The position numbers were made by a program, and so were the translations under genes. Shown piece after piece: positions 78 through 24,768 of a stretch of DNA of 25,712 bases (position 1 is its first letter; every line of letters begins with the position of its first letter). Where the stretch lies: contig JAAFKJ010000126.1 of NCBI GenBank assembly GCA_021399395.1, positions 1 to 25,712 on the forward strand, read 5' to 3'. Origin of the DNA: Candidatus Heimdallarchaeota archaeon. Lineage in GTDB: Archaea; Asgardarchaeota; Heimdallarchaeia; Heimdallarchaeales; Heimdallarchaeaceae. A model generated the notes under the pieces. The model did no database searches and was not told the origin of the DNA. It was given only the letters and a program-made list of their open reading frames with translations.

Positions 78-3000
78 ATGACATACAACAGAATAGATAA
101 GTTCAGTTCACTATTTTTCATAATATTATGTTTAAATTCAATACTATATTATGATATACAAAATCCGGATACTATAGATAACGAGAGTATATTGCCTGGT
201 TTAGATCCAGTAAACGATATCATAGTTGGTGATATACCTCTACCTGATGATTATTCATTTTTAATCAAGAAAGAGACCATACCTGGTAATTACGTCACAA
301 AAGGATTCTTTAGCTATAGTGATGCAATAACCTCTCCCAGCACAGGTGAAGGTATTGTTTATCAATGGTCAGATTATGATGAAATTAATCACGATAGTTC
401 TGGACTAATTAGAGCAAGATATGGAATCGGTGATATAGGGGTTCATCGTTATCCTAGTGCAGACGATACATATCTTCAAGGATATAACATGTGGAACGAA
501 GTTCCATATATAGGCGAATCAGTTATGTATAGCCCACAATTTACTGAAAACACAACTTTAGCTGATAAAGTTCATTATATAGCAAATATACATAGAGATA
601 CAAATGAACCTGGTCCTACTTATACATACAAAACAATGGATATTACTTACAAAATCACACTTTATCATTATTTCTCCTCTAATGACTCTATAAAGGAAAT
701 TACAAAAACTGAATTTTTACTCCCCAAAATTGGTGAAACCCAAACAGAATACTTTAGAAATTTCGAAACCAATAGTACATTTGGGACTTATACTATACCC
801 GCTGGAGATAGAATTAAAGTAACTTATGAGCTCAAATATGAATATAGTAGTGTAACTCAAGGTCATATAACTACTAATATCATGTCAGACGGTGGTGGCG
901 GTGTCAATCCACCTGGAACTAATGTATTCTGGGACATAGATGACGGTGTGCATACTCCTCCTAATCCATACGAGTTTACAAATACAGATGGTATTCTTGG
1001 TGTTCAACTCTATATGAGCGAGGAAATATATCCAGACATAAACTTCTATGGTCCAACTAATAATAGTGTATATACGACTGCAGAAACAGTAAACATAGCT
1101 GTCTCAGAAAATTCAGTTAGTTGCTATAGGTGGGATGGGGGAAGTTGGAACTCATTTGACAGTACTGCCTTAACATCATTACCAACAACTCATGAATATC
1201 ACTATTTAGAAGTTTCAGCAAGTGATCAAACATATAACAATACAAGAATTGAAGTTTTGAGATTAGGTTATGATGCAACATATGATAATTTGGTACTCAA
1301 TAATGCTGTAAGTGGAGATAGATATGCGGGTGGATACATTCTTGATTTCTCAACCTTAAATGTTCTTTCTGCAAATTATTCCTGGGATGGTGATCCAACA
1401 CCTGTTGTTTTGAACAGTCCATATGACATAACTACTCCCCAATTCAATGGTCTTCACAGTTTAGTTGTCAATACAACAGATTTATTCAAAACAAGAACTT
1501 ATAGTTTTGAATTTTACTTTGATTCGAATATCCCAGAAATCTACTTAGATAATGTTGTAAATAACTCATTCCTTCTAGCAAACAAAGAAATCAAACTTGA
1601 ATTACTAGATTATAGTGATTTTACTTGGTTGAATTATAGTTGGGATTTAGGATCAGTACAGTCATGGTCTAGTGATATTAGTAATATTTATTCAACATAT
1701 ATGCCATCTGGATTAGGTGGGCACTCTCTTGATATCTATGTCGAAGATATTTATGGACATAGTAATACTACATCTTTATGGTTTACAACTGACCCTACCG
1801 TATTTTCTGTAGATTTAAGATATATGGATGATGGAGGATATTATCAAGGAAACAATGATGTGGAATTAATTATCCAACAGAGTAATGGAGATGTATACTA
1901 TTCATGGAATGGAGGTTCTGCAACCTATACTATTCTTGTTACTGAATCATTAATTTTGTCTGGGGGAGATTCTCTACCAAACACAGAAGGTACTCACACT
2001 CTAAATATCACTACATTTGATACATTTAGCACTAGATTTGTTTATATTTACACTTTTTACGTTGATAAGACTCCTCCACAATTTATTGGAAGCTATGTTG
2101 CAGATTATAATAACACAAGGCTATTAGACACTCAAGTACTTACATTTGAACTATGGGATAATAATATCTCAGTATCATCATTAATAGTTCTGTATTCAGT
2201 AGATGAAAAAATCTTCAAGTCCTTTGATACAAGATTCGAATTTTCACTGATAGGTTTATCTAATGGTGATCATAGTTTCGATATAAAATCTCAAGATGCA
2301 GCAGGTAATGTCAACATCACTCGGATCTATTTTACCATAGATACTACTCCTCCTAATATTATTCTTGTCAATATGCCTGACGTAATCGATGATTCAGCAC
2401 ATGGCGCTTATTATGTCACTACCAATGCACTGTTCCAAGTATTTTCAAGTGATGCTGATCCTGATTACTATACTTGTTATTCATGGGATGGTCAACCATA
2501 CGAAAACTTCACAGATGATTTCAATCTTGTTTCAGCAAGTGACACTGTTGCAAATCTGACAATAAAAGCCATTGACAGCCTGGGTCTTGAGACTGTATAT
2601 ATTATTACGCTAGTTTATGATACTTCAGCTCCAGAGGTTTTTCTCTTGGATCCTTCTCCTTTAGATTCAATTAATACTCGAATACCTTTGGAGTTCAATG
2701 TAACTGATTACTCGCCATATACGGTTGCTAGTGTGGAATACGAATGGAATATCTTAGCACTCCCTGCTCCTTCATCTTGGGATCTACTAAGCGGAGAATT
2801 CTCGCTTTTGATGACAGAAGTATTTGCAGGATTATATGCCGATGAAGAATTTGCTAATTTGACTATAATTGTAGAAGATCTTTTGGGTAATTCTGATTCC
2901 TATACTTTCGATTTCAGATTTGATGCTACTGCCCCCAACATTAGTTTCTACTTTTTCAACCTAGTAAACACTACAATGGTACCTTTTGTAGAATATTTTG

Positions 3001-4880
3001 TTGTAGGCGGTACAGAAATTCACTATAATATCAGTGATGAAGTTGATATCAATACCATCGAGGTTTATTGGGATGATGAACCTGAACCTGATACAATTCT
3101 ATTTAGCCCAAATTGGACTTTCACAGTACCTCAAGATGATGGAACCCATACTCTTAGGGTAATTTTATATGATCATACTGGTACTAGTGTTATACAGCAT
3201 AATTCAGCTACAACAAATTTCACATTTACTGTTGATGACATTTCAGTTGATTTTATCAATCCTGATGATCTAGATACAAATAATCAGTTTACTATACTTT
3301 ACAACGACACATTTACTTATTCTGTGAATGTAACTGATTCATTTGATGGAGAAATAATAGGTGGTTTAGAAGTCTATATCTCTTATAATACTTATTATAA
3401 TTTTAGCGTTTCAGTTTCCAACGTTTCCACAATTTACACGGTTACTATACATGCTTTAGATGTTACAAATTCATTAGAAATGCCAATAAATGTGCAATTT
3501 TACCAAGGATCTCTTGCCAGAGGACAAACAGTAACTGTTCTTCTAACTGTAGCCCTAAGAGAAGGAATCTTAACAATTCTAGACGATACGGTTACGAGTG
3601 TAGAATTCTATGAAGAATTCGAAATTGTTGTTAATTTCCAAAATGATCTTGGAAGTAATCTCACCATAGAGAATCTATTTGCTAATGGTACTGAGGTATT
3701 AGAAATCAATGCCACAGAATCAGAATGTAGATTCAACTATTCATCCATAGATGTTGGTCATAAAGGTAATTTCTCACTTGTCATTAGTGTTGAATCTTTA
3801 TACTACTTTAGCACGTCAAGTATTAACACAACCATTACTTTAGAAATCAGACCTATACGGGTCTTCCTTCAAGTGTGGGTATCAAATACAACAATATTAG
3901 AAGGTCAGACTCTAACAATTTCAGCTAATCTAACCTATATTGATGGGTCACCTATTCCATTTGAGACTATAGCTTTTATAATTTATATATATTATAAGAA
4001 TGACACAACTATAACTCCAGAATTGGTGATGTTAGCTTTCTCAGATTATAATGACACTGAAGAAAAATCAGATACAACAAACTTTGCAGGAACAGCGACA
4101 ATTACATTTGTGTTAGATGAAACAATTGACCATATTGGCATTGGGGCTAGTTTTGCTGGAACACCAATTTTGGATGTTGTTGATTCCGATTTTAACGAAT
4201 TTGTTATTACATTTCCACCACCAGCTGAATTTCCAAAATGGTTACTCTATACCATTATTGGTGGAAGTATAGCACTAGCTGCAATAATCTCCTTTATAAT
4301 CTATAAATTCACTCGACCTAAATCATTCGAGGAATTGCTCTCCAAAGTTACACCAGAAGAGATGGCGCTCAATTATTCAATCATGTCACCAGGAATAATT
4401 CTAACAATTTTTGATCAACGTAAAGGACCTATCCCTCTTGTAGGTGATCATTCACTTGAGATTGGACGCTATATCGGTAGAATGCGCATAGGTATTGAAA
4501 ACTTCTTACTTAAGATAGCCGATCAAGCTTATTCAAGTTTGGGTTTTGAAGAACATGATGCTGGTAGAAGGGTTGGTTCAATTATTCTTCCAACTGAGAA
4601 AATGACTGGATTTATTCATGGTATCCAGATTCCAAACAAAATGGCAAGAGGAGGATTTGAGAACCTCTCACTTATTGTTTTAGCAGATGCAGAATATGGC
4701 ACTCTTCTCTTAAACTATCAAGAACACATCTATAGCGATATTGATGCTCTAGGTAAAGCTCTAAAGGAAAAGAAACCTTTGAAAGAAATTGAGGAAATCG
4801 TCAAAGCAATTAGAATAAAATCGGTACAGGTAATGATTGCTGCTCAAGGTATGGAAGAGCAACAAGCAAGTAGTGATTAA
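78..4880 (+). CDS. Large single-pass surface glycoprotein with Ig-like repeats and a cytoplasmic longin/uDENN-like (folliculin/SMCR8/NPRL2-like) domain
   Basis: N-terminal hydrophobic signal (FSSLFFIILCLNSILY). Eight Y-x-W-D/N-centred beta-rich repeats (aa ~350-997) with G-x-H-x-L and DxTxP motifs. Many NxS/T sequons. TM helix WLLYTIIGGSIALAAIISFIIY at nt 4239-4304, followed by K/R. The ~190-aa tail contains IILTIFDQRKGP and IPNKMARGGFENLSLIVL. Confidence 0.8.
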   Translation: MTYNRIDKFSSLFFIILCLNSILYYDIQNPDTIDNESILPGLDPVNDIIVGDIPLPDDYSFLIKKETIPGNYVTKGFFSYSDAITSPSTGEGIVYQWSDYDEINHDSSGLIRARYGIGDIGVHRYPSADDTYLQGYNMWNEVPYIGESVMYSPQFTENTTLADKVHYIANIHRDTNEPGPTYTYKTMDITYKITLYHYFSSNDSIKEITKTEFLLPKIGETQTEYFRNFETNSTFGTYTIPAGDRIKVTYELKYEYSSVTQGHITTNIMSDGGGGVNPPGTNVFWDIDDGVHTPPNPYEFTNTDGILGVQLYMSEEIYPDINFYGPTNNSVYTTAETVNIAVSENSVSCYRWDGGSWNSFDSTALTSLPTTHEYHYLEVSASDQTYNNTRIEVLRLGYDATYDNLVLNNAVSGDRYAGGYILDFSTLNVLSANYSWDGDPTPVVLNSPYDITTPQFNGLHSLVVNTTDLFKTRTYSFEFYFDSNIPEIYLDNVVNNSFLLANKEIKLELLDYSDFTWLNYSWDLGSVQSWSSDISNIYSTYMPSGLGGHSLDIYVEDIYGHSNTTSLWFTTDPTVFSVDLRYMDDGGYYQGNNDVELIIQQSNGDVYYSWNGGSATYTILVTESLILSGGDSLPNTEGTHTLNITTFDTFSTRFVYIYTFYVDKTPPQFIGSYVADYNNTRLLDTQVLTFELWDNNISVSSLIVLYSVDEKIFKSFDTRFEFSLIGLSNGDHSFDIKSQDAAGNVNITRIYFTIDTTPPNIILVNMPDVIDDSAHGAYYVTTNALFQVFSSDADPDYYTCYSWDGQPYENFTDDFNLVSASDTVANLTIKAIDSLGLETVYIITLVYDTSAPEVFLLDPSPLDSINTRIPLEFNVTDYSPYTVASVEYEWNILALPAPSSWDLLSGEFSLLMTEVFAGLYADEEFANLTIIVEDLLGNSDSYTFDFRFDATAPNISFYFFNLVNTTMVPFVEYFVVGGTEIHYNISDEVDINTIEVYWDDEPEPDTILFSPNWTFTVPQDDGTHTLRVILYDHTGTSVIQHNSATTNFTFTVDDISVDFINPDDLDTNNQFTILYNDTFTYSVNVTDSFDGEIIGGLEVYISYNTYYNFSVSVSNVSTIYTVTIHALDVTNSLEMPINVQFYQGSLARGQTVTVLLTVALREGILTILDDTVTSVEFYEEFEIVVNFQNDLGSNLTIENLFANGTEVLEINATESECRFNYSSIDVGHKGNFSLVISVESLYYFSTSSINTTITLEIRPIRVFLQVWVSNTTILEGQTLTISANLTYIDGSPIPFETIAFIIYIYYKNDTTITPELVMLAFSDYNDTEEKSDTTNFAGTATITFVLDETIDHIGIGASFAGTPILDVVDSDFNEFVITFPPPAEFPKWLLYTIIGGSIALAAIISFIIYKFTRPKSFEELLSKVTPEEMALNYSIMSPGIILTIFDQRKGPIPLVGDHSLEIGRYIGRMRIGIENFLLKIADQAYSSLGFEEHDAGRRVGSIILPTEKMTGFIHGIQIPNKMARGGFENLSLIVLADAEYGTLLLNYQEHIYSDIDALGKALKEKKPLKEIEEIVKAIRIKSVQVMIAAQGMEEQQASSD
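1020..3240 (+). repeat. About 8 degenerate Ig-like protein repeats (84-108 aa spacing)
   Basis: YRWDG (aa350), YSWDG (434), YSWDL (520), YSWNG (608), YSVDE (706), YSWDG (801), YEWN (888), VYWDD (996). Most are followed by a GxHxL/V...D motif. The repeat is visible at protein level only; boundaries are approximate. Confidence 0.7.
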
Positions 4881-4929
4881 ACTACCAGCCTTTATCGATA
4901 ATTTATTATTGCTTTTTTCTACTATTATC

Positions 4930-4967: not shown

Positions 4968-6896
4968 ATGTCCTATCTATTCGATGAATTATCAGGTAAA
5001 GAAGATGCTAAAGCTACTGTTGAAGACAAGATTCTACTCATGGGTCTTCAAGCCGCTGGTAAGACAGCTATCAAAGATGTTGTCTTTTTCAATAAACAAC
5101 CTGATGAAGTAGACGACTACATGGCTACTGTACATTATCAAAGACAATTCTTAGATGAAGAACAGACAAGTATGATCATCGATTCAGGAGGACAAGAAAG
5201 TTATTGGAATGAAGCCGTAACTCATTTTCGTCATCTCGTATTTTCGAATGTTAAATTACTAGTGTGGATAGTTGATGTAACCAAACCTGAATTGTTCGAA
5301 GAATCAGAAAGACGTTTCAGTTTTACCATACGACAATATAAGAAAGAAAATCCTGATGGAAGCATTACAGTTCTATGTCATAAGGTTGACCTAGTTACTC
5401 CAGAAAAGATGATAGTTATTCATCAACATATTCGGGATATGTTTAGCGAGGGAAAATACGAAGTAGATTTTGAAAATACTAGTATCTACTATCAAGATAG
5501 TTTGAGAGAATTATTATTTACTATAATGGAAGAAGCTGGAATCAATACCAAACGTTTCGAACTGATTTCAAATCTTGGTGAAAAAGTCGAACAGAGTGAT
5601 GAATTCCAGAGTTATGTTATGGAACATCAAGAAGATCCAAGAGTTCAGCAATTGCGTGATTATCTTAATCCCGAGCCTGAAGCTCTATTACCTTCATTTG
5701 GAAAACTAAGTATGCAAGTTGATTTGAAGGAATATGATATAGTTGAAATAGTTCTTGTAGATAAGAAAACAAACTCTCCACTAGTCGGTGCTTCATCTCA
5801 GGCAAATGTGAATGCAGAGAATTCTATGGAATATCTAATAGGACTTTATGATTTTAAAAACAAAATTAAAGAAAATGGTGAAAGCTTTGATCCAACTGGG
5901 ACTGTTATGACCTCTTCAACTGGGAAAGTTCATGCAATGATTTTCAGTTTGGATGTAAACTATCTACTCATAACCTCATTCACACCAATAACAGATGAGA
6001 GGAAAGAGTTGCTATATGAGCTAATTCTTAAATTTGCTCAATCAACAGCAACAGATGCAGCACCTGCAACACCAAGTGCACCAGTTACTAAAACTGAGCC
6101 CGTTGCTCAACCCGCACCTGTAGAACAACCTAAACCAGAACCTGTTGTTGCAGCTGAAGAAGTAGTTGTAGCAGAATCTGAGGTTGAAGTTATTGAGGAA
6201 ATTCCTGTTGAGGCATCAGCTCCATTAGAGGTAGAAAAGGAACAACCTAAAGCTAAACCAATCAAGATTGAGGAAATACTAACATCAGAAGAAAAAGAAG
6301 CAGGATTTTTTGAACCAGCTGTAATGGGAGAAGAATATCTAGGTGAAGAAAAACCAATAGCTATTCCCGCACCACCTAAATCTACAAAAGCTGTAGAACC
6401 TGAACCCGTTCTCGAACCACCTAAGGAGATTGAGGAAGATGTAGTTCCTGAACCACCTAAAGTTGAACTTGAACCTGCCCCAGCTGAAATATCTCAAGAA
6501 GAAGTACAAGAAATAGTTGCTGAAGCTGTTTCCAGTGAAAGAGAAGTTAAAATTGAAGACCCGGCTCCAGCTGTAGTACCTCCAACACCAGAACCTGCAA
6601 AAGTAGTCGAGGAAGTAGTTCCCGAGCCACCCAAAGTTGACATTGAACCAGAACCTGTTCCAGTCCAAGAACCTGTAGTAGAACCTGAACCAGTTGCAAC
6701 AGTAGATATAGGTGATGGTGCAGCGATTAGCTTTTCAGCAAATGATATCAAAAATTTTGCAAATTTCTTGGTTCAGAAAAAGGAGACCATCTTGGATGAA
6801 GCAACGACAGTTGATGATATCAAAAGTATGTCTAATTTTCTATTCAAAGGAATAACTGAAGAAGAAGAACAACAAAAAGAAGAAGGAACAGATTAA
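4968..6896 (+). CDS. Rag/Gtr1-like small GTPase with roadblock-like domain and Pro/Glu/Val/Lys-rich disordered tail
   Basis: G1 KILLMGLQAAGKT, G2 MATVH, G3 DSGGQ, VFSNVKLLVWIVDV, G4 HKVD (Rag-type His), G5 TSIY. Roadblock-like segment IVEIVLVDKKTNSPLV...MIFSLDVNYLLIT. PEVK-like tail from about aa 365. Confidence 0.88.
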   Translation: MSYLFDELSGKEDAKATVEDKILLMGLQAAGKTAIKDVVFFNKQPDEVDDYMATVHYQRQFLDEEQTSMIIDSGGQESYWNEAVTHFRHLVFSNVKLLVWIVDVTKPELFEESERRFSFTIRQYKKENPDGSITVLCHKVDLVTPEKMIVIHQHIRDMFSEGKYEVDFENTSIYYQDSLRELLFTIMEEAGINTKRFELISNLGEKVEQSDEFQSYVMEHQEDPRVQQLRDYLNPEPEALLPSFGKLSMQVDLKEYDIVEIVLVDKKTNSPLVGASSQANVNAENSMEYLIGLYDFKNKIKENGESFDPTGTVMTSSTGKVHAMIFSLDVNYLLITSFTPITDERKELLYELILKFAQSTATDAAPATPSAPVTKTEPVAQPAPVEQPKPEPVVAAEEVVVAESEVEVIEEIPVEASAPLEVEKEQPKAKPIKIEEILTSEEKEAGFFEPAVMGEEYLGEEKPIAIPAPPKSTKAVEPEPVLEPPKEIEEDVVPEPPKVELEPAPAEISQEEVQEIVAEAVSSEREVKIEDPAPAVVPPTPEPAKVVEEVVPEPPKVDIEPEPVPVQEPVVEPEPVATVDIGDGAAISFSANDIKNFANFLVQKKETILDEATTVDDIKSMSNFLFKGITEEEEQQKEEGTD

Positions 6897-6898
6897 AA

Positions 6899-8128
6899 TT
6901 AAACTGGTCTGCTATCGTCATATCTTCTATATTCTAAATCACCATCTAAAAAGATTGGAATTTCTCTTATACCTTCTACACACTCATGTAGTGGAAACAT
7001 CTCAACTGAAGTTGCACCAAATCCTTTTTGGATTTTTATACCCCTCTCTAGATTCTCTGAATTTTCTACTGCAACATCAATAAGAGATTTTTGTAGATTA
7101 CGACCACATGTATCACATTTGAAACTAATACTCATCTCTATTCTCTTTTCTACAGCTTCTGATTTTGGAATACCGTTCTTGGCAAGGTAGTCTACTAAAG
7201 TTCCTTTCATCTTGACTCTAGCTCTTCCAATTAACTCGTCAGTTTTGAATAGCTCTTTCATCTCTCCTGCAAGATTCATGAAGTAATTAATTTCTTCATC
7301 AACTGTGTGTTTAGGTGGAAAAACAGTTGTAAGAATTAGATCTTGATCGATTTCTCGCATGTATACTCTGTTTTCATCAAATGAAAAGGTTGCATAATCT
7401 AATTGTAGAGTTGGTGAAAACATTTTAGCTAGATCATTTTTAAGTTTAATAAAATTGAATCCATTGTATCTTTCAGGTTGAGAATAAAGCATTAGTCCTT
7501 GAGCAGTAGATAATGATAGAAACACTAACTCTTGTTTACTGAATGTCTCTTTAATCTTAACAGACTTGGTGTCATCCTTCGGATAGACGTATGCGATTAC
7601 TTGTTGCATTGCATCCCATATGGTGTCTTCAAAAATTGAAGTCCCTACAATAGCTGCGTTAGGATAACTCGAGATTTCAAAGATATCTTTAATTGATTGT
7701 AAAACTGGTTCTCGTTTATTTGGTGGGACAACATCCATCTTGTGGGCAAACACATAGATTCTAGCATTCTCTGCTAGTTGTTTAGCATTTTCCAGAGTTA
7801 GATCAAAATAATATTTCGACCTCATGATGTTTGAAGCATCAGATATATCTACAACAAAGATGAAAGCTTTTGCATCGCTGAAAGTTCTCTCTTTGTATTG
7901 TTCGAAAACTTCATTCAGATAGTTGGATTGACCACCAACATCATAGAGGTTGATAGCACTACCTGCAAGATTGAACAGTTTTCGGTTGATACGAACAGTA
8001 GCTGGGTTCATAGATGTAGCTTCTGGGGCGAAACCCTCAAAGACAACCTGCCTAATTGAAGTTTTTCCAGATTGAGATAGTCCAAGTACTACGATTTTTG
8101 ATTCTAGTTCGCTGTCTCCACTGTACAT
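6899..8128 (-). CDS. Rag/Gtr1-like small GTPase with roadblock-like domain and C-terminal Zn-binding domain
   Basis: G1 VLGLSQSGKTS, G2 PATVR, G3 DVGGQ, TFSDAKAFIFVVDI, G4 HKMD, G5 TSIF. Roadblock-like LVFLSLSTAQGLMLYS...VYMREIDQDLILTTVF. C-terminal CDTC...HEC. GAGG-type SD upstream on the minus strand. Confidence 0.88.
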   Translation of the reverse strand: MYSGDSELESKIVVLGLSQSGKTSIRQVVFEGFAPEATSMNPATVRINRKLFNLAGSAINLYDVGGQSNYLNEVFEQYKERTFSDAKAFIFVVDISDASNIMRSKYYFDLTLENAKQLAENARIYVFAHKMDVVPPNKREPVLQSIKDIFEISSYPNAAIVGTSIFEDTIWDAMQQVIAYVYPKDDTKSVKIKETFSKQELVFLSLSTAQGLMLYSQPERYNGFNFIKLKNDLAKMFSPTLQLDYATFSFDENRVYMREIDQDLILTTVFPPKHTVDEEINYFMNLAGEMKELFKTDELIGRARVKMKGTLVDYLAKNGIPKSEAVEKRIEMSISFKCDTCGRNLQKSLIDVAVENSENLERGIKIQKGFGATSVEMFPLHECVEGIREIPIFLDGDLEYRRYDDSRPV

Positions 8129-22761: not shown

Positions 22762-23772
22762 ATGTCTTTCTATGAGTTTCGAAAACGTATTCTAGAGGAA
22801 AAACAAAAAAGAGAAAAGCAGCAAGGTAAACAAGGCGGAACAGAGAAAGTAAGACAAGAAACTGTTATTGGGAGAAATAAGTTCAGTGTAGCACTACTGG
22901 GTTTAGAGAGAGCTGGTAAAACTTCCTTAGTTAAGAAATTACTAAAACAGGAAGATATCGTAGTGCGACCAACTTACGGGGTTAATCTTGAGAATTACCA
23001 ATACCGAGATTTAACCTTCACATGTTTTGATTTAGGGGGACATCAACCATTCCGTTTGAGTTTATGGAAGAAGTTCATTGAAAGAGCAGATGCTGTAATC
23101 TATTTAGTAGATTCAGCAGATCATGCTAGATTTGATGAGTCGAGAGAAACATTTTGGCATTATATTAATTTCGCAAAGCAAAACAGTCCAGTGATGTTTT
23201 TAGCAAACAAGAGCGATCTACCAAATTCTAAGGAATTATCAGAAATAAATGAACAATTTGAACTAGACAAGTTTTTGAGAAATCTTAGACCATTCAATAT
23301 AAAGAAGGTTTCAGCGCTAACTGGCCAAGGAGTATATGAAGCCTGGGATTGGATCGTAGACATGTTGTGTGGCGCTCAACAGTGGAAAGTGAAGATAGGA
23401 GCCGCTGTTCTTGCGGATATTGATGGTAATATTGTTTCTGAAGCCATCTTCGGTAAACCAAGTGATCAAGCTATTATCGCAAATGATTTTAAGAAACTCA
23501 AAGAATTAACCCGTTTATTTGCAATTGAATCAAAAGAGAGCATTCAATCTATAAAATTGGAAAGTCTCTTCAAAAAACATGTTAGTCATGTTAAGCGAGG
23601 AGCTTATTGTCTTTCTGTTATGATTGACCCAATTGATCCCGTTACAAGAGCTCAACAAATTCAACTGCGACTTCTAGAAAATTTCAGTCGCAATCCTGCA
23701 GAAGTACAGAAAAATTTGAATGAAGTTTTCGAGAGTAAATTCCCATTAGAAGTAGAAGGAGGACGTCGTTAA
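22762..23772 (+). CDS. Arf/Sar1-like small GTPase with C-terminal longin/roadblock-like domain
   Basis: G1 LLGLERAGKTS, G2 PTYG, G3 FDLGGH, LW..F...DAVIYLVDSAD..RFDES, G4 NKSD, G5 SALTGQG. C-terminal AAVLADIDGNIV...KRGAYCLSVMID. Confidence 0.9.
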   Translation: MSFYEFRKRILEEKQKREKQQGKQGGTEKVRQETVIGRNKFSVALLGLERAGKTSLVKKLLKQEDIVVRPTYGVNLENYQYRDLTFTCFDLGGHQPFRLSLWKKFIERADAVIYLVDSADHARFDESRETFWHYINFAKQNSPVMFLANKSDLPNSKELSEINEQFELDKFLRNLRPFNIKKVSALTGQGVYEAWDWIVDMLCGAQQWKVKIGAAVLADIDGNIVSEAIFGKPSDQAIIANDFKKLKELTRLFAIESKESIQSIKLESLFKKHVSHVKRGAYCLSVMIDPIDPVTRAQQIQLRLLENFSRNPAEVQKNLNEVFESKFPLEVEGGRR

Positions 23773-24768
23773 TTGAGTGGCTATTTGTCCTTCATCCGAG
23801 ATAAGCTTATGGCTTCTCAGGAAGAGAAGATACCTCAGTGCGCTATCCTAGGTTTAGAAGGGTCAGGCAAATCAAGCGTTATAAGTCGTCTTCTATATGG
23901 AACTGTTTCAGATGATCAACCCATGCAACAAACATGTTTCATCAATGTATCATATGGTAAATCAACAATCACAATTCTTGAAGCTGATGAAGAAACTTCT
24001 CGTGAAAGTCCTTACTTCCAAGATATACTTGGGAAAATTGATGGGATTGTTTTCGTGATTGATTCGCAATCATTAAGACATGTAGAAGCTTCCTTCGAAT
24101 ATATCTTTAGTTTGTTTGATAAGATACCACAAACAACTTCAATTTTATTCTTAGCTAACAAAACTGATCTTCCAGATAGTGTTCCTTTTCCTGATTTACT
24201 TCAGGACCCTGCTTTTCAAGTCATCATGGATGATATCAATAGATCTGTGTCAATTTATCCAGTAAGCATTAAAACTGGAGAAAACTTCTACACGGCATTT
24301 GATTGGGTTATATCAAGAATGACTGGTAGAACCCCCTTAAGAGAAGAAGTTACACCTAAAAGAGTAATCATTCTTCAGGAAGGCGGTGTTCCAGCTTTCG
24401 ATCATACATTTGACGCTTCAGTTGAAGAGCACGATAGCACACTACTTGGAGGGTTGATAAGTGCGTTAAATATTATGGCTTCCACCATATTCGAGTCTGA
24501 ATCCGTAATGGATGTAGTAAAACTTGGTGGAATGAAAATGGTAATAAGAAAAATGGGTGGGTGGAGTATAGTACTTTTTGTTGACCGAGATGATAGTGAA
24601 TCAAAAGCTCAATCTCTTGCAGAAGAGATTCTTAATGCATTTCAAGAAGAAAAAGAGCGAGATCCTTCAAAGGATCTGCCAAAACAGATTAAGTATGAAT
24701 TTCTTACTAAGATTCCTGAAATTGCTATCTTGTTAGATCAACAACCAGAAAGAGATGACGAATATTAA
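23773..24768 (+). CDS. Degenerate Arf-like (pseudo-)GTPase with C-terminal longin/roadblock domain
   Basis: TTG start immediately after the upstream TAA. G1 ILGLEGSGKSS, G4 NKTD and G5 SIKTGE are intact, but G3 reads LEADEE. C-terminal IILQEGGVPAF...LLGGLISAL...WSIVLFVD. Confidence 0.82.
   Translation: MSGYLSFIRDKLMASQEEKIPQCAILGLEGSGKSSVISRLLYGTVSDDQPMQQTCFINVSYGKSTITILEADEETSRESPYFQDILGKIDGIVFVIDSQSLRHVEASFEYIFSLFDKIPQTTSILFLANKTDLPDSVPFPDLLQDPAFQVIMDDINRSVSIYPVSIKTGENFYTAFDWVISRMTGRTPLREEVTPKRVIILQEGGVPAFDHTFDASVEEHDSTLLGGLISALNIMASTIFESESVMDVVKLGGMKMVIRKMGGWSIVLFVDRDDSESKAQSLAEEILNAFQEEKERDPSKDLPKQIKYEFLTKIPEIAILLDQQPERDDEY

Follow-up and report, generated by a model that had tools for sequence, protein, structure and literature searches.

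The 25,712-nt window analysed here (the whole stretch of DNA) is one whole contig (C31; JAAFKJ010000126.1) of the 2.8-Mb, 81.8% complete genome of a Candidatus Heimdallarchaeota archaeon, and its gene P0001 encodes a giant surface protein with a cytoplasmic tail that is predicted to fold as a longin domain. An earlier note on this DNA had picked out in this tail a motif of the folliculin (FLCN)/SMCR8 type and had proposed that its arginine, R1524, is the conserved arginine finger of a GTPase-activating protein (GAP). We conclude that the tail is probably a membrane-tethered GAP-type longin that acts on one or both of the Rag-like GTPases encoded next to it, with R1524 as the arginine finger. 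The features of P0001 on which the argument turns are the following.

78 to 4880, forward strand: the P0001 gene, encoding a 1600-residue single-pass surface protein (open reading frame, transmembrane scan, Pfam, sequons).
4239 to 4310, forward strand: transmembrane helix (residues ~1388-1411), with a basic juxtamembrane stretch after it (Kyte-Doolittle scan).
4311 to 4877, forward strand: cytoplasmic tail, residues 1412-1600, with the longin domain (structural model, Foldseek).
4410 to 4430, forward strand: FDQRKGP, the end of strand 1, the loop and the GP that opens strand 2, residues 1445-1451 (tail residues 34-40; sequence and model).
4521 to 4547, forward strand: DQAYSSLGF, the end of helix alpha1, tail residues 71-79 (alignment).
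4644 to 4664, forward strand: ARGGFEN, the loop between strands 4 and 5, with R1524 (sequence and model).

From its N-terminus, P0001 comprises a hydrophobic segment (signal or anchor), an ectodomain of about 1350 residues with an Ig-like Big_13 match (PF19077; Pfam, E 1.1e-7), one transmembrane helix and a tail of 189 residues. Residues 1388-1411 are the only region of the protein in which a 19-residue window exceeds a mean Kyte-Doolittle value of 1.8; the basic stretch YKFTRPK follows directly, and 38 of the 40 N-x-S/T sequons lie in the ectodomain, all of which bears out the claim of the earlier note that the motif sits in the tail of a membrane protein. Judged from these sequence features, the single transmembrane helix places the tail at the inner face of the cell membrane.

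A sequence search returned 77 long P0001 homologues, nearly all labelled Heimdallarchaeota or Asgard, and ten family members carry the NCBI names 'hypothetical protein' or 'Ig-like domain-containing protein'. No other part of the protein is conserved as well as the tail (46-71% identity among the homologues compared, versus 31-39% for whole proteins). A full HMMER scan of 1.8 billion representatives gave 46 matches to the tail family, among them a remote branch, 26-29% identical, whose members likewise make up the C-terminal end of ~1500-residue proteins; fragments related to this branch are labelled Hodarchaeota or Hodarchaeales. A search for tail homologues of similar length, the only length class searched, yielded no free-standing soluble form; the 51 proteins it returned, 'partial' wherever the source is named and mostly from short contigs, are read as fragments of giant proteins. 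The genome of the window holds a second full-length paralogue (G000:C196:601..4959, locus L003), whose tail is ~46-50% identical to that of P0001. An 83-codon frame in the same genome (G000:C179:10132-10296) corresponds to no more of the tail than its C-terminal helices (E 1.8e-8).

An AlphaFold2 (AF2) model of the tail, computed from a 27-sequence alignment, reached a pLDDT of 93.6 and a pTM of 0.89. Two short N-terminal helices are followed in this model by strands 28-35 and 39-47, helix 62-77, strands 88-93, 98-108 and 116-126 and three helices, the order beta-beta-alpha-beta-beta-beta-alpha-alpha-alpha, by which the predicted fold is that of a longin. The top Foldseek match in the PDB was 8yqg (E 4e-6), in which the longin of a Lokiarchaeota Roadblock-Longin protein forms a dimer, and the entries that follow it at a probability of at least 0.98 are 8dhb, 9o5d, 4zy8, 6ulg, 9v0j, 6nzd, 9o5a, 8p0v, 7mge, 9h4q and 8adl. 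With the identity of the matched subunits taken from the PDB entry titles only, these are chains of the active FLCN GAP complex (8dhb, E 1.1e-3, 20% identity), of FLCN-FNIP2-Rag-Ragulator (6nzd, 6ulg), of GATOR1 (9o5d, 9v0j, 9o5a), of C9orf72-SMCR8-ARF1 (7mge) and of the yeast SEA complex (SEAC; 8adl, 9h4q), together with the Lst4 longin (4zy8) and DENND10 (8p0v_M, E 1.3e-2); the FLCN, GATOR1 and Lst4 entries matched at E values between 1e-3 and 5e-3. No SNARE, TRAPP or MglB-type chain occurs among the best 50 fold matches listed, and the nearest solved non-Asgard structures are longins of GAP complexes, not SNARE, TRAPP, SRX or adaptin longins.

A roadblock/MglB-type identity of the tail was also considered and dropped: neither the tail nor its relatives have a Pfam Robl_LC7 match, and the 50 listed fold matches include no MglB or LAMTOR chain, only Ego3 at E 0.19. 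Solved structures from Lokiarchaeota, released in 2025-2026 (8yqg, 8yl2, 8zla, 9m28), comprise the Rag-like 'LokiRagO' and 'LokiRagM' and the longin dimer of the Roadblock-Longin protein, and this set may bear directly on a longin-Rag system; our literature search found no paper on 8yqg, 8yl2 or 8zla.

Both parts of the motif are present where the earlier note had read them. Nucleotides 4410-4430 (ttt gat caa cgt aaa gga cct) encode FDQRKGP in the 78..4880 frame, and the string GFIHGIQIPNKMARGGFENLSLIVL is present in the tail, with AGA at 4647-4649 as the codon for R1524 (tail R113). In the AF2 model, G39-P40 of the tail (G1450-P1451) start strand 2, and R113 is placed in the loop between strands 98-108 and 116-126. 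The arginine is also conserved among Asgard homologues: it is invariant in all 75 complete tails, and F34, G39, D71, R113 and G114 are each found in 78 of the 78 distinct domain sequences from all fetched loci, a set that includes relatives of 24-29% identity and Longin-GTPase fusions (see below), while P40 is P in 69 of them and A in 9. Since R1524 is moreover among the 12 invariant columns of the 27-sequence alignment, which reaches down to 24% identity, the motif lies far beyond chance.

These positions can be compared with published descriptions. The passages of PMC12290439 that deal with the GP motif place it in the loop that joins strands 1 and 2, or where strand 2 begins, in SMCR8, C9orf72, FLCN and NPRL2, spatially adjoining the arginine finger, and state that FNIP2, NPRL3, adaptins, TRAPP subunits and DENND proteins lack it; SMCR8 R147 is assigned to the longin beta4-beta5 loop and equated with FLCN R164 in the relevant passage of 10.1101/2020.04.16.045708. 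The GP and the arginine of the modelled tail match these descriptions of GAP-type longins. The view of the earlier note that an F-D-x-x-x-GP opening is typical of uDENN/longin domains holds in so far as the GP opens strand 2, but is too broad, as the motif is reported to be missing from DENND proteins and non-GAP longins in that part of PMC12290439. Its placing of the arginine in the strand 4-5 loop agrees with the tail model, and its proposal of a conserved GAP arginine finger gains support from the conservation, the predicted longin fold, the loop position and the placement of the GP. We treat R1524 as a candidate arginine finger, assigned by its loop position in the model rather than by residue-level superposition on FLCN R164.

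The fold and the motifs bear together on the possibility that the tail is instead a guanine nucleotide exchange factor (GEF) or an effector platform, comparable to DENN, Mon1-Ccz1 or TRAPP, that activates or reads out the neighbouring GTPase. Longin-containing regulators are mostly GEFs, as stated in the relevant part of Tran et al. 2024 (PMC10933270), and DENND10 is among the fold matches; however, the best eukaryotic matches are GAP complexes rather than TRAPP, Mon1-Ccz1 or SNARE longins, the reported absence of the GP motif extends to DENND and TRAPP longins, and the invariant arginine occupies the catalytic loop position, which makes an exchange factor or effector platform very unlikely.

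At the sequence level, the tail family has a weak but consistent link to Folliculin. Sub-threshold matches to Pfam Folliculin (PF11704) occur in 15 of 27 family members, the best at E 0.001; of 10 members that were rescanned, 6 gave a match, always in one register (tail ~100-165 on profile ~49-111), and the matched stretch contains the Arg loop. Across the window's genome, 81.8% complete as it is, neither PF11704 nor PF06218 (NPR2) has a match. One small Asgard cluster of language-model neighbours carries Pfam NPR2 on 19% of its members (score 0.86), which we regard as a lead only. Among PDB sequences, the family profile and one tail matched only a polyubiquitin, a transaldolase and a CENP-E chain, all at E above 0.5, which are of no use for a sequence link.

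Two genes next to P0001 encode the candidate partners of the tail.

4968 to 6896, forward strand: P0002, 642 residues, a Rag/Gtr-type GTPase and candidate substrate (Pfam Gtr1_RagA, 1e-25).
6899 to 8128, reverse strand: P0111, 409 residues, a Rag/Gtr-type GTPase with a roadblock domain and a Cys/His extension (Pfam Gtr1_RagA, 1.2e-32).

Both are true Rag-type GTPases, with Gtr1_RagA scores of 90.9 bits (P0002) and 113.7 bits (P0111) at a cut-off of 22. The G domain of P0002 spans residues 1-200 and contains GLQAAGKT, DSGGQ and HKVD, and the switch motif of P0111 is DVGGQ, so that the two have the DxGGQ form ascribed to them by the earlier note as RagA-type, in which that note saw a possible trace of an ancestral pairing; the RagC-type motif is DFPGQ. 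The PDB sequence matches of both are headed by Gtr1 and RagA, those of P0002 being Gtr1, RagA and RagC only, and by sequence P0002 and P0111 appear nearer to Gtr1/RagA than to RagC/Gtr2. Past its G domain, P0002 continues with a conserved middle domain (residues 200-370, 42-92% identity across loci), a Pro/Glu-rich linker and a short C-terminal segment. The linker and last segment, residues ~370-642 (6077..6896), have no Pfam match, the ~230-residue linker being rich in Pro, Glu, Val and Ala.

P0111 is convergent with P0002. Its AF2 model shows, past the G domain, a helix (186-198), strands within 203-217, a helix (226-236), three strands (245-270) and a helix (276-293), and matches RagA, RagC, Gtr1 and Gtr2 in Foldseek at E ~1e-19 over ~300 columns; on this model, P0111 is a G domain joined to a C-terminal roadblock domain and a Cys/His-containing extension. 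The extension, residues ~334-409 (6902..7130, reverse strand), has a conserved C-x2-C ... H-x-C pattern with short strands and looks, from its sequence, like a small metal-binding module that is absent from eukaryotic Rags. P0111 is a candidate second substrate of the tail, or a candidate dimer partner of P0002.

We then surveyed gene order at 43 loci with P0001 relatives in GTDB species genomes, scoring neighbours by tblastn and calling a locus orthologue-type when its tail shares 57% identity or more with that of the window (30 assessable loci, including the window and leaving out L009, where the contig ends). A P0002-like gene lies 90-266 nt downstream on the same strand in 28 of the 30, and a convergent P0111-like gene is found in all the P0002-bearing loci of this type that extend far enough; the exceptions are L036, with no GTPase gene within 10 kb, and L037, which has both genes in a rearranged order. 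Because the loci are kin, these 28 do not count as independent events. At L007, L011, L012 and L013 the giant gene is present as two or three paralogues in a row; each encodes a longin tail, with 67-76% identity to that of the window, and the last directly adjoins the GTPase gene. This arrangement suggests that heterodimeric tails are possible. Among the 14 paralogue-type loci (tail identity 43-54%), a different Rag-like gene adjoins four (L030, L034, L038 and L044).

The tail domain was found by profile in 96 of 301 genomes. Its families include f1 (19 of 28 genomes), f5 (19 of 21) and f6 (10 of 11); matches are weaker in f14 (30 of 68) and some other families, and there are none in f11 (0 of 76) or f17 (0 of 19). 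Genomes of f5 (G102, G139, G256 and others; loci L077-L095) hold up to ten copies each, at the ends of different giant proteins, some of them in open frames of more than 10,000 codons. The sampled f14 matches (L097-L102) are, in six cases out of six, single proteins of ~470 residues in which a longin is followed by a Rag-like GTPase: residues ~6-155 are recognised by the tail profile (E 1e-13 to 1e-15), with FD..GP and ARG retained, and residues ~166-338 match Rag-like G-domain profiles. These fusions are a Rosetta-stone link between tail-type longins and Rag-like GTPases. They end in a further C-terminal domain of ~130 residues, and at four of the six loci a second, separate Rag-like gene lies ~2.3-4.2 kb away.

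The survey also speaks to the idea that the tail has nothing to do with GTPases and is, for example, a sorting or assembly module of giant surface proteins whose neighbourhood was inherited by descent. The kinship of the 28 loci allows for this, as does the lack of a GTPase neighbour at most f5 copies, but Rag-like genes stand beside 4 of 14 paralogue-type and 3 of 20 f5/f22 loci in differing arrangements, an independent covalent fusion to Rag-like GTPases exists in a different family, and the fold class and the predicted complex (see below) point to GTPases, so that this explanation is barely credible.

We modelled two copies of the tail with residues 1-200 of P0002, GTP and Mg, supplying our own alignments. 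The three runs gave ipSAE values of 0.73, 0.70 and 0.74 (median 0.73), compared with 0.00 for the best of three controls; among solved complexes, 58 of 80 attain the mark applied to this score, as do 2 of 110 pairs of mismatched proteins, a calibration that does not extend to supplied alignments and a ligand. At least 80% of the contacts were common to the runs and the partner pLDDT was at least 86. In the predicted interface, the first tail copy contributes residues 34-40 (FDQRKGP), 71-80 (with DQAYSSLGF) and 113-118 (RGGFEN; specifically 113-116 and 118), of which 34-40 contact the P-loop and switch II of the GTPase and 71, 74-75 and 78-80 contact switch I. The second copy contributes the 33-43 loop, helix 60-75, 107-117 and 151-157, and on the side of P0002 the contacts come from residues 28-29 in the P-loop (GLQAAGKT), from switch I (50-61) and from the switch II Gln with adjoining residues (76-79). 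Both tail copies touch P0002, and the score covers the tail-GTPase interface, not that between the tails. Of the 12 invariant family columns, ten coincide with residues of the interface, which numbers 36 in all (hypergeometric P ~1e-6), an overlap that is not independent of the supplied alignment. The pertinent part of PMC9473554 describes a similar arrangement for the active FLCN complex, whose solved structure has both longins in contact with the G domain of RagC and R164 beside the gamma-phosphate mimic.

The predicted complex helps to weigh the proposal that the tail is a non-catalytic membrane anchor or scaffold for the Rag-like pair, in the role of Ragulator/EGO, FNIP or NPRL3, with the arginine serving in binding or folding. 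Longin and roadblock dimers are common GTPase platforms, according to passages of Tran et al. 2024 (PMC10933270); the tail is membrane-tethered, gene linkage suits scaffolding and catalysis equally, and a lipid-anchor motif was not noticed in P0002 or P0111, for which no dedicated analysis was made. On the other hand, the GP and the arginine, which PMC12290439 reports, in the part concerned, to be specific to catalytic subunits and absent from FNIP2 and NPRL3, are here both present and in our analysis called invariant, and the predicted interface is on the P-loop and switches, in a construct that consists of the G domain and lacks the roadblock domains bound by Ragulator-type anchors. A purely anchoring tail is, in our judgement, unlikely.

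A GAP-type longin could also have a substrate other than P0002, either P0111 or a GTPase encoded elsewhere, such as an Arf-family member, as in C9orf72-SMCR8. The window itself contains two tandem Arf-family GTPase genes on the forward strand, at 22762..23772 and 23773..24768, whose products (336 and 331 residues; Pfam Arf E 3.5e-39 and 2.3e-15) are both far longer than a bare G domain and could be alternative clients of a longin GAP. Further in favour of another substrate, P0111 is as conserved in the module as P0002, the GTPases at paralogue-type loci are nearer to P0111 (36-41% identity) than to P0002 (29-33%), 17 of the 20 sampled f5/f22 loci have no Rag neighbour, and close cousins of a true partner can also pass complex prediction. 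Yet the tail gene is followed directly, on the same strand, by P0002 in 28 of 30 loci, P0002 passed the complex test with controls at 0.00 (as the sole GTPase modelled), and the GTPases fused in f14 match Rag-like profiles; a client that excludes P0002 is distinctly unlikely.

We therefore return to the reading that we consider probable, a membrane-tethered GAP-type longin acting on the neighbouring Rag-like GTPase or GTPases by means of R1524. What we observed is the sequence and how it is conserved, the fold predicted for the tail, its linkage to the GTPase genes and the fusion of the two domains; the binding, which the complex model predicts, is inferred, as are dimerisation, catalysis and any role in signalling, along the following lines. 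Two tails, either copies of one another or paralogues, would probably come together as a longin platform, and the target of this platform would be the G domain of P0002, or possibly that of P0111 in addition or instead. Docking would bring the GP loop and helix alpha1 onto the P-loop and both switch regions (I and II) of the GTPase, and R1524, carried by the loop between strands 4 and 5, would reach into the nucleotide pocket and accelerate the hydrolysis of GTP. The glycosylated Ig-repeat ectodomain would couple the state of the cell surface to the GTPase switch, in the fashion of a receptor-type GAP.

Several points weigh against this reading. Apart from the placing of the arginine by loop position and the two limits of the complex model given with its score and its overlap, that score may reflect model memory, because FLCN-RagC, GATOR1-RagA and C9orf72-SMCR8-ARF1 complexes have been solved. 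The protein has no DENN domain, as P0001 ends after the three helices behind the sheet, and there is no distinct second longin subunit, unlike in FLCN-FNIP or SMCR8-C9orf72. The window's own tail has no Pfam match at E of 10 or below, the best Folliculin score in the family is 19.3 bits against a gathering cut-off of 23.3 that no member reaches, and searches of PDB sequences with the family profiles and one tail returned no FLCN, NPRL2 or SMCR8. In the gene neighbourhoods, a P0002-like gene is present at none of the 14 paralogue-type loci; the paralogue in the window's genome (C196) is flanked by an AlkZ-like glycosylase, a methyltransferase and proteins without a Pfam match, with no GTPase; and a Rag-like neighbour of the tail gene is found at only 3 of the 20 sampled f5/f22 loci (L088 and L089 in the f5 genome G102, and L096 in f22). 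Finally, the 87-nt spacer between P0001 and P0002 (4881..4967) contains a six-T run (~4913-4918) and a TATA-like ttatatta ~27-34 nt before the P0002 ATG, and the two genes may therefore be transcribed separately.

Among known systems, FLCN/Lst7, the GAP for RagC/Gtr2 that works with FNIP/Lst4, resembles the tail in the longin fold, in the GP at strand 2, in the arginine between strands 4 and 5 and in the likely client, a GTPase of the Rag family; relatives of the tail also give weak Pfam Folliculin matches that span the Arg loop. The Arg loop of the P0001 tail reads ARGG-F-EN, and that of FLCN has the ARGF form. The solved FLCN complex (in the part of PMC9473554 cited above) and our model further agree in that both longins touch the G domain, and Lst7 is described as longin-only in a passage of 10.1101/2020.04.16.045708. 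FLCN and SMCR8 differ in having a DENN domain after the longin, whereas the P0001 tail lacks one and we identified no distinct FNIP-like partner gene; FLCN is recruited from the cytosol, whereas the P0001 longin is covalently membrane-tethered in a 1600-residue surface protein, and sequence similarity of the tail to FLCN stays under the family thresholds. NPRL2/Npr2, the RagA/Gtr1 GAP of GATOR1/SEACIT, shares with the tail the GATOR1 and SEAC chains among the best fold matches, the one language-model neighbour cluster with NPR2 and neighbouring GTPases nearer to Gtr1/RagA than to RagC; it differs in that neither the tail nor the genome has a Pfam NPR2 match and no DEPDC5- or NPRL3-like partners were seen.

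An analogy without any claim of homology can be drawn to plexins, which are single-pass proteins with an Ig-type ectodomain and a cytoplasmic arginine-finger GAP for a small GTPase; the plexin GAP fold is RasGAP-like and unrelated to the longin. Within Asgard archaea, 8yqg is the best structural match and belongs to a Roadblock-Longin protein of different architecture. The f14 proteins, with FD..GP and ARG retained, are fusions of the Longin-GTPase(-Roadblock) kind mentioned by Tran et al. 2024 (PMC10933270); regulator and GTPase are in them one soluble polypeptide, whereas P0001 and P0002 are separate genes and the longin of P0001 is membrane-anchored.

The class of longin is known already. 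Heimdallarchaeial 'FLCN/SMCR8-type' longins with the GP motif and an arginine finger have been reported (Traffic 2025, PMC12290439) from the same phylum and with the same fold and the same two motifs, in a paper whose 15 Asgard sequences may include the present family and which raises the question of Rag/Gtr or ArfR GTPases as partners of these longins. The words 'transmembrane' and 'operon' occur 0 times in its text, and the relevant passages mention no transmembrane anchoring, gene neighbourhood or fusion. Neither the membrane anchoring of the longin, nor its conserved module with Rag-like genes, nor fusions that bear the motifs came up in a full-text literature search, and these three appear to be unreported.

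To our knowledge, FLCN-FNIP, GATOR1 and C9orf72-SMCR8 are the only known longin-based GAPs, and they control mTORC1 signalling and lysosome biology. In a cultured Lokiarchaeon, regulators and GTPases are generally not arranged in operons and their pairing is hard to predict, as noted in a passage of Tran et al. 2024 (PMC10933270). The locus described here offers a concrete and directly testable pairing for the open question of which GTPase the GAP-like longins of Asgard archaea act on, with a GAP-type longin, a conserved adjoining Rag-like pair, independent fusions and a predicted interface of invariant residues as its evidence, and the longin-Rag pairing also occurs as single-chain fusions in other Asgard lineages. 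A wider proposal, possible but doubtful at present, is that Heimdallarchaeia own a receptor-type Rag-GAP axis at the plasma membrane, in which giant glycosylated Ig-repeat proteins with longin GAP tails of the folliculin/NPRL2 type (from one to about ten per genome), acting as homodimers or paralogue dimers, would switch off a dedicated Rag-like pair according to what their ectodomains encounter, and that the eukaryotic FLCN/GATOR1-Rag module would descend from such a cell-surface device. The occurrence of the longin as the tail of a receptor-like giant suggests that Rag regulation could have been coupled to membranes before there were lysosomes and, if this is true, the nutrient-sensing GAPs of eukaryotes would have a prokaryotic forerunner.

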